A stretch of 64,000 nt of DNA. It comes from Escherichia coli (GTDB lineage Bacteria > Pseudomonadota > Gammaproteobacteria > Enterobacterales > Enterobacteriaceae). Location: the NCBI RefSeq assembly GCF_041248615.1, contig NZ_CP158425.1; one strand, given 5' to 3'. Shown here piece after piece: positions 3,001 through 9,000 of the stretch. Within the stretch, counting starts at the first letter, position 1; each line of letters begins with the position of its first letter. Made by a program: the position numbers.

Positions 3001-6000
3001 TACGAGTTTGGATGAAATTTTTGCCGGATTTGGTTTTTTCAACCTGGTGCTCGATCTTCCATTCTTCTTTGACGGGACCGGATGACAAATGAACTAGAAC
3101 CGGTACTTTTTTACGTGTTCTATCCAGAACAATACAATTTGATTTATCCGTATCAAAGCTTCCCTGAAGAGTATTCAAAGAGCAATTATCATATCCCTCA
3201 ACCGGAACTGCATTACCTTGGATATCAATTTTGAATCCTCCAGCTATTACAATTTCGGGTGCGTTATCATTTAAAGTCTCGTCATAGGCAGCATCAACTA
3301 CATCGCAAGCAGTAAGAGTAAGTGACGATGCCACAGCAAGACACAATAAAGAAAATCTGTTTTTGAACATATTTGAGACCTTTTATAAAAATAAAATAAC
3401 AGGAGAATTGTATCATTAACAGTCTAGTTCTAACGACTACCACTTTTAAGTATGTATTGAGCCAGTTTTATATTCAGGCACACCATATTGCACTCTAGCT
3501 CTTTCATCATTCTTGAAGAACTCTTAATTAAGTATTCTTCAAGTGGGCCAGCATATGCCCCTGATGTCACGATCGTTAGTTGCGTAAGAGGATGAGTCAA
3601 ACTCTCAATGCCCTTCAGGATGTCATTCTGGACAGCAGCAATATAAACAGGCGAAGCCGCAATCAAATATTCATCATTCGGGCTGGACTGCATTAACTGG
3701 CTTATAGTTGCGCAACGGTTATGCTTACCTAGTGATTTTGTGATGGCTTTCCACCAGAGATCATGCCTGAATGGTACTTGATGAAATGTCGCCTCGTAAG
3801 AGGGCACCCGATCTCGACTATTTAAAAACCCCATCCCGGCAGAGATTATCCACAACTCCAGATTTCTGGTTGAGTTTAAAATTTCCTTTGCCGTAGACCA
3901 GTGATTACCTGAATACAAGGACAATGCCGGTACCGCCTGATTACTTCTGGCGTCGTCTACAATGTTACTCCAGGCATATGCTGCGTCGTCCGGGGTTTGT
4001 TTTGGATCTATGTCCAATGTCGGCCAGACGTGGCCCTGATGATTCTTGCCCTTTGTACAGGAAGTGATTAAGTGTACTGAGCGTTCAGAGAACATTATCT
4101 TCCTTACATACCCATAGAACAGCTTTCTAAGAACGGTGGGCTCGCCTGAAAATTACAAATCAGCCCCTTTCACGGCATCATTTTGATTCTTCGCGTCTGC
4201 CCCCAGTAAGATGACCGGTTTTCTGCATGACAGTGTTATTCCTAACAAACGCAACACAAAACCACGCCAGCCAGAGCAAATTTTTTCATTTGCTGCGTAA
4301 AGCCTATTGTTTTCTCTTTTAAGCTTCGCCCACTCGTTACAGAGGGTAACATCATCAAGCGCTGTTATATGCTTCGCCTCACCTTCGACGATAACGGTAT
4401 GGATACCGTATGCTGTAAATCTCATACTATTTTCCAGAACCCAGTTGCGGTATTCGTCGAGTCCACCTTCGGAACCGGTAGCTCTGCGCCACATTTCAAT
4501 TTGCTTGTGTGATGGGTCAAGTGTACTTGTCATTGAAGCCTCGTCTCAGCGATAACGCTTGAAATAGCCCGCTTTGGTCATCATGAAATTAGCCATCTGA
4601 CTGGCGATTTGATTGTATCTTACTCATAGTGCCCTACCTATAGGTTAAAAAGGGGCATTTTCGCTTTATAGCGTGTTCAGCAGCATCAATCCTCCCAAGA
4701 AAGGCTGGCTTATTAAGCCGGTCCATCATTTTCTGTATATCTCTCATCAATTTTTATATCCGCCCTGGAGTGCACCGTTCAAGCACACCGATTAGGCAGA
4801 TAGTCACTAGTTAACTCTTTACTAGTGACTAAATTCCATTGATATACGTGACAACGTCACGTCATGAAAGCTTTTAAATGCCTATTTTTCATACAATGGG
4901 ATTTAATTAGGAGTAAATCCCATAGGCTTACATAAGGATGACAATTAAAAGCGTTAAATATCAACCAGATAGAATGATTACCCCCAATTAATGGGCTCAT
5001 CACATTATTTCACTGGCTGGGGTTATTGCTGGCATATCTGAAAGTGCTAATATGTTAGTCATTAGTAATTAGTAAAGCCTTTACTAAACGCGTTTCTACG
5101 TAAATTCTATAGGTTTTATAGGGTCCTACCTTTGCTCAAATCAAAATGTTCTGACATACCAAAATGGAGTGTAAAATGACTCAAAACCAGGGTTCTGAGC
5201 CAGTACCGGCGAGCCGGACAGGGCAGCTCATCAGCGCCCGGGATATGGCCATGCAGAAATTCGAAGAAGGGATGCGGTTAATCTCGGAAGCGTCGGAACT
5301 GTGCGGTCTCTCTCTCTTCACCAGCAGAATTATGCAGCCCAACGCATTTGGTCTTCCGTCGTCACTGGATCGCACCATCGAGGAGGGGCGTAAGGAAATT
5401 GACCGTAAAACGTGGAAAAGGCTCTTTGAAGAAACAGGTATGGACCGGTACTGGAACCATAAGCAAAAAGAAGCCTTTAACGAATCCCTTCGTACGGATC
5501 CGCCCGTCGCTTCCCTGGAGATTGTTAAGGGAACATTACAGCATGCACTGGCTAACAGACGAGACACCCTTGCAGAAGGTTTCGTTGATGTTCTCAACAA
5601 GCTTGACCGAAGTTTCAAAAGCAATGCCAGGCAATATACAATGCCAAAAAAGCTTGTTCTTCGGGGGATTTTTCCTGGTGTGAACGTGCTGAGGTACAAC
5701 GGTTTCTCGCAGGACAATCACTTTTGTTTACGCGACTTTGAGAATATTGTATGCATCTGTTCTGATACTCCAACACCTGCAACCGGCGGTGGGCTGAGTA
5801 TGGTCGACAGGCTGACGGCCATGAGAAATACAGAATTCACAGGCGAGGTCAGTGATGAGAATGGCTGGCGGTGTCGCCTGTTTGAGAATGGAAACGTTCA
5901 TATTTGCATCGACAGTATCTCGCTTCTGAATGCTCTGAACGATCTTATCAGCATATATTTTGCAAACCAGCTTCCGGCCGCAGGAAAAAAATGATGATTG

Positions 6001-9000
6001 AAAATGATAAAGAAAAAAGCCTGAACGATGCTACCCCGCCAGAGGTGCAGAATGACATCCGCAGCGAATCCACTGAAAAATCAAAGGAAATGGGTCGTTC
6101 AAGGTACTCATCTATCGCGATGATCGATTACTTCAATGCAATCGAACGTCTGTGCAAAGAGAAAGAAATTAACCCGGAAAATATCGATCTGAGCTTCAAA
6201 GTTCACTGGCTCAGAAACGCTGTTGGCGGCTCGTTTGCAAGGTCACAGGAGATGTTCGCGGAGTACCAGAAGTATGTTAAAGAGGTTCCTGAAGAGGCCC
6301 GTTACCTGGATATACCCGATGAGGTAAAGGTTGCACTCGGCGATATTATCTCGTACATCACCTGGCACTACCGTAGAAGCTATACCGCAATACAGAATGA
6401 TAGTGTTAAAAAAGCTGAAGCACGTAGCATGCAGCTGGAGGAGGAGGTAACGCAGCTGTTACAGCGGCTTGAGCAAAGCGCTACCGATATGGATGAGCTG
6501 AAACTTGAGAATCAGGCACTACAGGGTCGATTAGAGATCCGGGACAGTACCGTCAAGGAGTTAGAAACAAGGCTGAATGTTGCCGAAGCAGAACTCGAAA
6601 CCTGCCATCACCAGTTAGATAGCACACGGCATGAATTGAGCCTCGCACAGCAGTCAAATGACTCACTCTCCCAGCAACTGGCTGAACGTAAAACAGAGAT
6701 CGCTGGTCACCTTGAATATCAAAAAAAGCTGAACGAAGAGATCAACACGCAGCGTTCTGATAACGCCGGTCTTTCCAGACAATGCGACCAGTTAAGTCAG
6801 ACTGTGTCAGATACAAAGGCAGAGAGGGACAGGTTTGAACAGGAATTGATTGCTGCACAGAACCTTTGTACTGAGCTGAAAAGTGCACTGTCCGGGAAAG
6901 AGGGTGACCTGGTGGCGGTGAATGCCGAGCTTACTGAACTCCATAAACTAAACGAGTCGCTGAGCGCCGACCTGAATAAAGTAACTTTGGTCAGCCAGGG
7001 CTATGAAGCGGAAGTGGCTGAACAAAGCAATGAACTCAAAACGCTCCAGGCCAAAGTAATGAAGCTGGAAGCTACCCTGGAGGCGGAGAAAACAATCTCA
7101 GAATCCCTAAAAGGCACCATTGATACATTAACTGGTGCAATGGCAGGGGGAGGTACTGGAAAGTCAAAACAGCCGCGTAGCAGAAAAACATCATGATAAA
7201 TGAAGCCAGGTTGATACACTTCTCTGCATCCCCTGGCACATAAGAACTTCTGCGGACATTCAGCCCGTCCGCAGGAGTTTTCGTCCTTCAGTCAACAAAT
7301 GCACTACCTTTTTTGAGTCTCCACTTTCCAGAGCAGAAAACACGTTACCGATTCTACCAACAGCTTGTATCTGAGTGATAACCCCAGTCTTGTAATCATC
7401 TAGGATCCCTGACAGGAAAGCGTTCAGTTTTGTCTGTTCGCTTAGCGAAAGCATGTAGGACATTTTTTCTCCATTTTAAGCAGGTGTGTCAGTTGAAAGA
7501 GGTTTGCGTGATTCTGGAAAATGAGGCAGCACCATAGTTTCAGATGCTGTGGTCGCATCCCAGTGCCACCATCCATAAGGCCCATATTCACGGTTGTAAT
7601 AATCTTTTTTGAGTTGCTTTCGGGCCAGATAAGCAGGAGTGGCCATACCAAATACTTCCATCGGGAACGGCTTATCGCTTTTTGTGTCGAGCAGGTAGAA
7701 GTCAGGGAACACCTCACTAATACTCGCATCATAACGCATGGGCTTAACGTACTGCCGGTGCTCTGCATCCAGCTTTTCTGCAACAACCGCCTCATAGGAG
7801 GAGTCCAGAGGTATCCAGTTCTCGCTAACGTGCATCAGCACAATTTGATGAGCTCTTACAGAAGGGCCTCTGCCGGTTACCGCAGCTGGTGACGTCAACG
7901 CAAAGACAACTATTTTCGCCCCGGATTTCCATGCTGCGTACTCCGATGAAAATCGTTTCTTTACGCTATCCCAATGGACTTCTGAATTGAAAAAAATCAG
8001 CGGTAGCCCCCCAAAATTCCGCAGGGGTAAAAATTTAAGTGGCTTCTCATGCTTTTCAGCATCGTAGCGAGGTAAAACTGACAGGAGCATGAGACGTTTA
8101 TCACTCATCGCCTGTGATGAAAGACGCTGAATTTGCGACTGAGCGACAGGTTGTTTCGGGTCAGGTACACCAATGAATAAATGGTCACCTATGCAGGCTC
8201 TGCCGGTACGAATTTGTTTAGCGGTTTCAAGCAGACGATACCGTACCAGTGAATCGTTACGTTTCCCTGCCATTTTCGGGTACCAGACATTCAGACCAGA
8301 CTCTGTCCACAAAAGACTAAGCAAGCCCAGGAGGGTCATTGAGGCCTGACCTCCTTCTGGTCGCTGAACATGGGGCAGGGGAGGCACTTCTGATTTTTCA
8401 GGAGGATCTTTCTCTGTCATACCGATACCGAGCCTTACAGCCATATCACCTTCGGTTGTAATCCGGACCACACCACTCGCATATCCTTTCAGGCCGGTAT
8501 GCCGGGCATCAAGGGAGAAGAATACACAGGAAGGATCATGCTCAATGCCCGTGTTAGCGGCTTTGACGAGAATAAAGGCATCACCGTTCGGTAAAGCACG
8601 AACATAAAGTCGCTTTTCTCCTTTTCCACGACATCCGCAGGTGATGACTGATTTTTGACCTGAGGTGTGGTGTGCCTTTTTAAGAGCCGACTGCCACCCT
8701 TTAGCAAACTCATCCTGCGTTTGAAAGTCAGGTGAATACCTTTTGACGTTTGGATCGTCGTCGTAAGCAATCATCACTGCGAATTTTTGGCTCATAGTAG
8801 TCTCCTAAACAGGAAGTTTAATATCCCAACCAGAGCAACACTTCCTGAGCGTCATACTGTTCCTTTACGCCCATGTCGCTAAAGAATTCTTCGAAATCTG
8901 TTTCGGGAACGCAATGCCTGGACAGTTCTTGTAATGCTCGTTCTTTAGATACCGTCTCACCTTCAGCTGATTCGAAATACGTCATGGTTGACCTCTGACA

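Follow-up and report, generated by a model that had tools for sequence, protein, structure and literature searches.

IncHI2 plasmids rank among the main vehicles of mcr-1 and of multidrug resistance, and to our knowledge no function has been assigned to most genes of their backbone. One backbone locus poses the question of what a long, palindrome-rich gap does ahead of two overlapping genes, and which protein would read its repeats. It lies in the window analysed here, a 64,000-nucleotide stretch from the backbone of a large multidrug-resistance IncHI2 plasmid (~265 kb), in which the gap upstream of the operon measures 630 bp (4534-5163). The original prediction had likened this arrangement to a plasmid centromere or operator with partition or KfrA-like proteins. 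Our reading, to which we give a probability of roughly 0.5, is that these 630 bp control a two-gene operon of the IncHI plasmid backbone, and that their palindromes probably serve that operon as a set of repressor binding sites.

Palindromes and repeat arrays of the intergenic region

Each of the four inverted repeats claimed for the region is present, and several are slightly longer than claimed: TAGTCACTAGT-N9-ACTAGTGACTA (4801-4831, arms of 11 bp), ACGTGAC-aac-GTCACGT (4846-4862), ATGGGATTTA-N8-TAAATCCCAT (4896-4923, arms of 10 bp) and TTAGTAAAG-c-CTTTACTAA (5069-5087, arms of 9 bp). The claim of palindrome richness also held up. Counting perfect palindromes with arms of at least 7 and loops of at most 12, five were found in 4534-5163 against a mean of 0.50 in dinucleotide shuffles, with none of 500 shuffles reaching five, and this was the top-scoring 630-bp stretch in the window (window mean 0.65). 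Single-strand folding gave z = -7.8 for the + strand and -4.8 for the - strand. The region is AT-rich as described, but only moderately, with a GC content of 35-40% compared to 45-50% in the flanking genes. No Rfam family reached its gathering score; the best match, Hammerhead_HH9, scored 22 bits where 52 are required and fell within the coding region.

The palindromes sort into three conserved sequence elements, namely 7-bp unit arrays (sites A and B), GTGAC-N3-GTCAC and the palindrome with 10-bp arms. The arrays arise from the first and fourth palindromes, which share one 7-bp unit that the original prediction had missed. Site A, the distal array (4801..4831), reads TAGTCAC TAGTTAA ctc TTTACTA GTGACTA, that is, two units, a 3-bp spacer and two inverted units. 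Site B, the proximal array (5056..5086), reads TAGTCAT TAGTAAT TAGTAAA gcc TTTACTA, with three units, a 3-bp spacer and one inverted unit, and is the mirror image of site A, which lies 262 bp upstream of it. There are about eight units in total in these two small arrays. The pattern TAGTnAnTAGT has four matches in the window where 0.16 are expected, all of them within sites A and B, and no match was found elsewhere in the 264 kb of a plasmid with an identical locus.

Both arrays, with their 3-bp spacers and their mirrored polarity, are kept in seven of the eight lineages compared; the exception is L012, which has a clear site B and a site A recognisable only in part. The distance from A to B is 246-286 bp across lineages and does not correspond to a constant number of helical turns. 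Among IncHI2 variants the inner units of site A are invariant, as is site B except for the middle base of its spacer. In two distant lineages, L004 and L011, TCATnAC units replace TAGTnAn at both sites. As the unit sequence has switched while the array layout has been kept, this change points to a putative co-evolving binder, and it provides a natural, ready-made specificity swap between lineages.

The second palindrome (4846..4862) has the core GTGAC-N3-GTCAC at 4848-4860, which is present as a single copy in each locus and on the plasmid as a whole. It is the most conserved motif of the control region, being invariant among IncHI2 variants and unchanged in all of the eight lineages but L013, where one arm reads GTTAC. 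The third palindrome, ATGGGATTTA-attaggag-TAAATCCCAT (4896..4923), is unique within the window and has 98.8% of cells paired across the eight lineages; two positions have changed on both arms (G:C to C:G and T:A to A:T) and none on one arm only. Comparison of IncHI2 variants, which are ~91% identical overall, showed no change in the motif blocks and a scrambled spacer from the third palindrome to the promoter. Because the motifs are conserved where the encoded proteins are only 50-64% identical, and the spacers between the motifs are not, the region looks like a genuine operator region, as predicted.

Predicted promoters and a proposed mechanism

A predicted sigma-70-type promoter is located at 5026..5053 on the + strand, with a -35 box TTGCTG (5026-5031), a 16-nt spacer and an extended -10 TGcTAATAT (5045-5053). 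It scores under the threshold of a simple consensus scan. It is invariant among IncHI2 variants, and six of the eight lineages have a TGn plus TAnnnT element directly upstream of site B; the other two, L004 and L011, keep the TAnnnT hexamer (TATAAA and TATACT) and lack the TG. Site B begins 3 nt past this conserved extended -10 and spans about -4 to +27 relative to the predicted start. Further upstream on the + strand is a putative distal -10 hexamer, TACAAT (4892..4897), recorded as TAC-n-AT in all eight lineages with T, A and the final T conserved throughout (TAnnnT). No good -35 was found for this hexamer, and the consensus promoter scan did not pick it up. It overlaps the first two bases of the 4896-4923 palindrome, which could be an operator covering the distal -10 and its start site, or else a DNA hairpin. 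The operon ends at a probable bidirectional terminator (7250..7274), a stem-loop CTGCGGAC-N9-GTCCGCAG followed by GAGTTTTCG, of which the - strand was listed by the scan and the + strand reading was taken from the sequence.

Transcription would run mainly from the proximal promoter with its extended -10. As site B lies 3 nt after the -10 and over the predicted start, a repressor bound to it would block RNA polymerase. The most likely binder would be the operon's own 401-aa protein, working via the helix-GG-helix of its conserved head as an autorepressor in the manner of KfrA. Site A may bind the same protein, with the long coiled coil bridging both sites. The DUF4942 protein encoded by the first gene would probably be its partner, made in fixed proportion to it since the two genes abut or overlap. 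The GTGAC-N3-GTCAC motif and the co-varying 10-bp-arm palindrome could form a second control layer, possibly over a weak upstream promoter. We give about an even chance to autorepression of this kind through sites A and B by the 401-aa protein, with DUF4942 as partner.

The encoded proteins and the comparison with KfrA

The first gene (5176..5994, + strand) encodes a protein of the DUF4942 (YdiA/YgfB) family, an identity that the original prediction had not recognised. It had been described as 276 aa long; the gene call stands, but the start is more likely to be ATG 5176 (272 aa) than ATG 5164, because a GGAG ribosome binding site is found at 5166-5169, a diverged relative retains this part of the leader and PGAP gives the same start. 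The protein matches Pfam PF13708 (E = 3.3e-26, residues 73-261 against model positions 2-187 of 190) and phrog_38825 (E = 4e-100), and has all the invariant residues of the family (W80, D187, H242 and N255). A structure-based search had been proposed for this protein: the AlphaFold2 model is confident (pLDDT 88), but a PDB fold search with it gave no match, known DNA-binding and target-recognition folds included. Searches of Pfam and NCBIfam gave no match to a partition NTPase, and the sequence has no P-loop. There are 583 representative relatives, many of which are about 450-600 aa long and carry a C-terminal EPSAGxG...NPPF methyltransferase; a second DUF4942 copy on the same plasmid carries this domain, and the 272-aa protein is without it.

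The second gene (5991..7196, + strand) encodes the 401-aa protein and overlaps the first by an ATGA at 5991-5994, as originally described. The protein consists of a variable acidic N-terminus (1-36), a conserved helical head (~37-140) with the helix-GG-helix motif, a coiled coil (~140-380) and a basic tail. Over residues ~136-380 there are matches to coiled-coil segments of the models for SMC, crescentin, JetC and LmuB. With a pI of 5.7 the head is not basic, and no homology to KfrA_N or to other Pfam or PDB entries could be detected for it; as the structure model is poor (pLDDT 62), the helix-turn-helix reading comes from a sequence pattern. The database name 'ATP/GTP-binding protein' derives from a non-conserved AGGGTGKS in the disordered tail, and the original remark that no Walker motif was recognisable can be extended to both proteins, neither of which has a real nucleotide-binding motif.

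A homologous gene of ~384-406 aa lies directly 3' of the DUF4942 gene in every intact homologous locus, abutting or overlapping it in the six loci with called genes and at the same offset in L018 and L019. The DUF4942 protein is the more conserved of the two, with 57-64% identity within the TAGT class and 50-56% across classes, compared to 48-56% and 30-42% for the head of the coiled-coil protein. Between the two unit classes the helix that follows the GG turn differs, being SFxRxQEM in the TAGT class and RI(H/S)NAT in the other. The divergence of the head domain therefore appears to track the unit switch, which is a single switch event confounded by phylogeny.

The likeness to KfrA holds for the layout of head, coiled coil and basic tail, and does not extend to detectable homology. 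No match to KfrA_N (PF11740) was obtained by Pfam in the full protein or in 10 head-domain homologues, and hhalign against R751 KfrA gave probabilities of 2.4% (full length) and 0.2% (head). The 401-aa protein resembles KfrA without a detectable relation, and if autoregulation is true, KfrA-type control would extend to a family that lacks detectable KfrA homology. As an analogue of the locus, KfrA of plasmid RA3 comes closest: the operator through which it represses its own promoter, dissected by experiment, is of strikingly similar build, with five 9-bp repeats, three direct and two inverted, situated at that promoter and absent elsewhere on RA3 (PMC7783346). The array at the IncHI2 promoter instead has 7-bp units, three direct and one inverted, and like the RA3 operator the IncHI2 arrays are unique on their own plasmid. 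KfrA of IncU RA3 and of IncP-1 RK2 and R751 has in common with the 401-aa protein a globular N-terminal head, a long alpha-helical coiled coil, a short basic C-terminus, a motif-level ..R..(L/V)GGS(F/Y)....E...E(W/Y) and an RKK(T/P)-type tail, and both come from a small operon with another helical protein. However, the KfrA head is about 50 aa, whereas that of the 401-aa protein is about 100 aa and follows the 36-aa variable segment; the partner gene comes first, the reverse of the KfrA order, and encodes DUF4942 and not KfrB or KfrC; and the IncHI2 locus adds the mirror-image array and two further conserved palindromes.

The operators of the Omega repressor of pSM19035 are also 7-bp units in direct and inverted arrays, and the IncHI2 units are likewise contiguous, of mixed orientation and at promoters. 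No ribbon-helix-helix protein was identified near the IncHI2 locus, however, and the short ORFs next to it encode acidic products that do not look like DNA-binding proteins. The central unit pair with its 3-bp spacer measures 10 bp centre to centre, and would suit a helix-turn-helix dimer just as well.

Other readings of the locus and its distribution

It is possible, if rather unlikely, that the DUF4942 protein and not the coiled-coil protein binds the 7-bp units or another palindrome, with the coiled-coil protein as a structural partner. Many relatives consist of DUF4942 and a minimal N6-methyltransferase core of ~190 aa with no further domain, so DUF4942 could supply target recognition, and DNA binding by it would explain its frequent fusion to a minimal methyltransferase. 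For three distinct conserved motifs two binders or more are required, and the proteins invariably encoded next to them number just two; moreover, the most conserved motif is GTGAC-N3-GTCAC and the more conserved protein is DUF4942. This has to be set against a confident model that matches no known DNA-binding or target-recognition fold, a neutral protein (pI 6.9), and the distant DUF4942 genes of IncI and IncL/M plasmids, upstream of which none of the IncHI2 control-region motifs was found. We are doubtful, too, of a hitherto unrecognised DNA-organising IncHI module in which the coiled coil would bridge the arrays and DUF4942 would read one of the two remaining conserved palindromes; if true, it would give a first functional handle on the YdiA/DUF4942 family.

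Binding of the sites by host factors or IncHI global regulators (H-NS/Hha, HtdA) in place of the operon products appears unlikely. The region is AT-rich and 2.4 kb from a plasmid H-NS gene, in R27 the majority of genes outside the transfer set respond to HtdA and to temperature, and the exactness of GTGAC-N3-GTCAC in seven of the eight lineages is as for a host factor. However, the 7-bp units and the third palindrome differ between lineages that share hosts, which argues for co-evolving, element-encoded binders, and all three motifs are confined to this locus (the third palindrome, within the window), unlike the sites of a global regulator.

The centromere or partition role in the original prediction is not supported: no NTPase is encoded by either gene, and ParA/ParB and ParM (ParMR) modules are already present in the plasmid's Tra2 region. 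A centromere-like or positioning site served by the two proteins as a third, NTPase-free segregation or stability module is very unlikely. It would suit a two-protein operon beside short-repeat arrays that are unique on the plasmid, the locus is kept in every IncHI-type lineage examined, and KfrA-type proteins do aid plasmid stability and contact ParA and ParB; but no Walker, actin-like or tubulin-like NTPase (ParA, ParM or TubZ type) is encoded in the operon, and of the two small arrays one sits directly on a promoter, as operators typically do.

The DUF4942/YdiA family is carried by >5000 plasmid records and is among the top leading-region families of plasmids (Samuel et al. 2024). In F-like and IncI plasmids no other family takes the place of first gene beside oriT as often (median position 1). 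The IncHI2 copy differs in its position, at ~105 kb of NZ_CP020493.1 with the mobI/MobH relaxase at ~195-200 kb, and so does not share the leading-region location that is typical of the family without defining it. It also differs in being coupled to the coiled-coil gene, the IncI and IncL/M copies examined being uncoupled. Single-strand promoters of the Frpo/ssi type are long imperfect hairpins in the leading region that rebuild -35 and -10 boxes, and they drive leading-region operons of IncI and F plasmids. That the palindromes here are such conjugation hairpins, acting as single-strand promoter or priming signal, is most improbable: the family's place beside oriT, folding far better than shuffled sequence and the perfect Watson-Crick pairing kept by double changes in the third palindrome would agree with it, but the locus is about 90 kb from the relaxase region, its stems are only 5-13 bp, site A of the IncHI1-type lineage is a poor hairpin (TAGTCAT against TTTACTA) with the unit layout still kept, and site B is mostly direct repeats.

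The locus pairs a very widespread, uncharacterised plasmid family with a KfrA-like protein and compact candidate binding sites. It is kept across IncHI1, IncHI2 and related elements, and the pairing of the DUF4942 and coiled-coil genes is retained while the upstream neighbours vary. In R478-type plasmids a Tn7-like element parts the control region from the genes and both are still intact, so the control region may serve something else as well.

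A conserved control region upstream of the DUF4942 operon

The 630-bp gap at 4534-5163 is confirmed as a conserved control region with several sites. It serves an operon whose two products, a DUF4942 protein (gene at 5176..5994) and a 401-aa coiled-coil protein (5991..7196), are uncharacterised proteins of the plasmid backbone. The operon is best read as a putative KfrA-like autoregulated module without detectable KfrA homology. The four inverted repeats of the original prediction are all present, several with longer arms than reported, and the region is AT-rich as described (GC 35-40%, against 45-50% in the genes). 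Five perfect palindromes (arm ≥7, loop ≤12) were counted in the intergenic region compared with a mean of 0.50 in dinucleotide shuffles, none of which reached five in 500, and this is the palindrome-richest 630-bp stretch of the 64-kb window. Rfam searches matched no family.

A single 7-bp unit is the building block of both the first and the fourth palindrome: site A (4801-4831) reads TAGTCAC TAGTTAA ctc TTTACTA GTGACTA and site B (5056-5086) reads TAGTCAT TAGTAAT TAGTAAA gcc TTTACTA. The motif TAGTnAnTAGT has four matches in 64 kb, where 0.16 would be expected, all of them within sites A and B; the 17-bp core of unit, 3-bp spacer and inverted unit is found at these two sites only, and neither motif has a further copy in 264 kb of plasmid.

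Single-strand folding of the region gave z-scores of −7.8 and −4.8. A role as a single-strand promoter is nevertheless unlikely, because the stems are short, the site A hairpin is not conserved and oriT is distant.

Inspection by eye found no convincing leftward promoter adjoining site A. A GC-rich stem-loop, GGCTGGCTTATTAAGCCGGTC (4703-4723), separates site A from the leftward 126-aa gene; it has a terminator-like score on both strands and would shield the leftward operon from any transcripts begun near site A. A 12-codon ORF, MMTKAGYFKRYR (4537-4575, minus strand), stops 14 nt short of the 126-aa gene's start and may be a leader peptide or a chance occurrence. The blocks ATAG(T/G)G(C/T)CCTACCT and CTATAGGTT..A.AGGG are both present at 4626-4654 and, in swapped order, at 5107-5131. 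The two pairs bracket the whole control region, and the second copy is located at the insertion point of a Tn7-like element.

Conservation of the region between lineages

The loci compared encode DUF4942 proteins with 54-64% identity to that of the window; they comprise the IncHI1/R27 type (L003, L018, L019) and four lineages from metagenomes or plasmids (L004, L011, L012, L013). Locus L009 was left out as non-independent: it is of the same plasmid type, at 99.5% DNA identity, and its assembly has frameshifts. Four conserved elements were seen in the upstream regions. Both arrays recur, site A as one unit, a spacer and two or three inverted units, and site B as its mirror image, with the exception of L012 in which site A is only partial. 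The unit itself is TCATnAC at both sites in L004 and L011; thus in L011 site A reads TTATTAC ccg GTAATGA GTAATGA and site B reads TCATTAC TCATTAC ccg GTAATGA. Helical phasing from site A to site B is not constant.

The GTGAC-N3-GTCAC core (4848-4860) is exact in seven lineages, has one mismatch in L013, and is present as a single copy per locus. CRP recognises half-sites TGTGA and TCACA with N6 between them, and was rejected as a binder of this palindrome as the spacing is one base short (TGTGA-N5-TCACA). The same core was observed in a palindrome, TGATGTGAC-att-GTCACATCA, located 70 nt past the DUF4942 gene of the IncI-gamma/K plasmid pESBL-305 (L006:7866-7890), which may be a chance match as approximately 0.3 would be expected in the DNA searched.

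The third palindrome (4896-4923) shifts in sequence by lineage (ATGGGATTTA, ATGCGATTTA, CTATGCGATATAA) while its pairing stays near-perfect: paired cells make up 98.8% of a gap-free 32-nt alignment, with changes to both arms at two positions and to a single arm at none. Since one-sided, wobble-type changes are absent, this pattern is more in keeping with a palindrome acting at the DNA level, as a dimer site or as a DNA hairpin, than with an RNA stem.

The fourth conserved element is a pair of putative promoter motifs, both scoring below the threshold of a simple promoter scan. An extended −10 (TGn + TAnnnT; 5045-5053 in the window) lies directly upstream of site B in six lineages, L004 and L011 retaining the TAnnnT hexamer alone, and every one of the eight has a TAC-n-AT hexamer that runs into the beginning of the third palindrome. 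Transcription is predicted to start at ~5060 and perhaps at ~4904. R478-type variants share ~91% identity overall, and the only differences in their motif blocks and proximal promoter are single changes in the outermost units. In IncHI2 variants the 45 bp from the third palindrome to the promoter are scrambled, and a conserved small ORF or RNA in this stretch was rejected because the stretch itself is without conservation.

The two proteins and the likeness to KfrA

Both ORFs and their ATGA overlap are present as predicted. The first gene, however, was given as 276 aa, and a start at ATG 5176 (272 aa) is more likely since GGAG is present at 5166-5169, the leader around it is conserved in a diverged relative and the PGAP start is identical. 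The 272-aa protein belongs to DUF4942 (PF13708, E = 3e-26), and a search of 1.8 billion representative proteins returned 583 relatives in two size groups: stand-alone forms of ~260-290 aa, and forms of ~450-600 aa which have a methyltransferase core, recognisable by EPSAGxG and NPPF motifs, at the C-terminus. A second, fused copy of 563 aa is encoded outside the window on plasmid NZ_CP020493.1 (257070-258761; L022:43070-44761, minus strand); it has the C-terminal NPPF methyltransferase domain, and its gene is close to that of a Dam-family methyltransferase.

The AlphaFold2 model of DUF4942 (95 homologues) is confident, with a pLDDT of 88, and has no match among PDB structures in a structure search. 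Neither NCBIfam nor PADLOC contained a match to DUF4942, and PDB sequence searches with both proteins gave none. No functional study of DUF4942, YdiA or these protein accessions was found in the literature searched, and the transcriptome data published for R27 could not be assigned to the two ORFs. The YdiA/YgfB family ranks 24th among the top 100 leading-region families; its 2171 members have a median position of 1 relative to oriT (Samuel et al. 2024). Leading-region placement of DUF4942 was confirmed in IncI and IncL/M examples; in the IncHI2 plasmid the operon is ~90 kb from the mobI/MobH relaxase region. The chief value of the locus is as a way into DUF4942/YdiA function.

In the 401-aa protein a variable acidic N-terminus is followed by a helical head, a coiled coil of ~240 residues and a basic tail. 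The head (residues ~37-140) is conserved and contains FKVHWLRNAVGGSFARSQEMF; no Pfam or PDB relative of it was found, its structure model is poor, and NCBIfam and PADLOC returned coiled-coil noise only for the protein. The database name 'ATP/GTP-binding protein' probably stems from AGGGTGKS (7145-7168, residues 385-392). This string conforms to the P-loop pattern of PROSITE; it is part of the disordered tail, and homologues lack it.

KfrA is the closest system to this protein and operon. The KfrA of plasmid RA3 represses its own expression and combines a helix-turn-helix at the N-terminus with a long coiled coil; 9-bp repeats around the −10, three of them direct and two inverted, make up its operator, which is absent elsewhere on the plasmid (PMC7783346). 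The control region described here is the same in kind, and so the predicted likeness to KfrA holds for operator design. It does not extend to homology: in a direct test against R751 KfrA, hhalign paired LRNAVG-GSFARSQEMFAEYQ with VRKQLGSGSFTTISEAMNEWR at a probability of only 0.2%, and the protein was therefore filed as working like KfrA rather than as a family member. The partition role also proposed was not borne out, as there is no NTPase and the plasmid has ParA/ParB and ParM modules in Tra2.

The change of unit between lineages bears on which protein reads it. Between the TAGT and TCAT classes head-domain identity is 30-42%, compared with 48-56% inside the TAGT class, and the helix after the GG turn of the head is rewritten; for DUF4942 the values are 50-56% between classes and 57-64% within. 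This slightly favours the coiled-coil protein as candidate reader of the 7-bp units, only one switch event being involved. DUF4942 is a candidate binder for the GTGAC palindrome or the third palindrome. Small neighbouring ORFs were rejected as ribbon-helix-helix binders: their products, of 55 aa and 67 aa, are either acidic or non-basic, and the 67-aa ORF lacks conservation.

Plasmid setting and the Tn7-like insertion

Many IncHI2A plasmids of Salmonella, E. coli and Enterobacter are 100% identical to this region; it matched 1177 plasmid records, with the whole query covered in 566 of them. The locus is set in backbone DNA in NZ_CP020493.1, and the resistance region occupies the window from ~19 kb on. 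R478, along with about 340 further IncHI2 plasmids, carries a Tn7-like element that has inserted ~48 nt ahead of the start codon, in the interval from site B to the DUF4942 ribosome-binding site (window ~5127-5130; R478 locus L025:3195-3352). TnsA is the first gene of the element, and the sil/pco island is located at its far end. The control region and both genes are intact despite this insertion, which complicates a purely autoregulatory reading. R478-type plasmids are a natural perturbation and a ready comparison for operon expression. The TnsA-proximal end of the element abuts site B, and by analogy with TnsD of Tn7 its target selector might recognise DNA overlapping this site.

To the left of the locus are the plasmid H-NS gene and a leftward operon including a DUF6884 protein, and to the right is a leftward operon of DUF1173, a small ORF and a cytosine methyltransferase. 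Upstream neighbours vary by lineage (the DUF6884 operon, an FRG-domain gene, a GIY-YIG gene, or none close), and only the DUF4942 and coiled-coil genes are invariably beside the control region. The 221-aa DUF6884 protein (3430-4095, minus strand) matches PADLOC models of DpdC (E = 4e-59), part of a 7-deazaguanine DNA modification system, and no other dpd genes were seen near its gene. The small ORF between the DUF1173 and cytosine methyltransferase genes (8818-8985, minus strand) encodes a very acidic 55-aa protein, which is conserved at this place in every lineage where the genes around it were called and whose charge would suit a DNA mimic.
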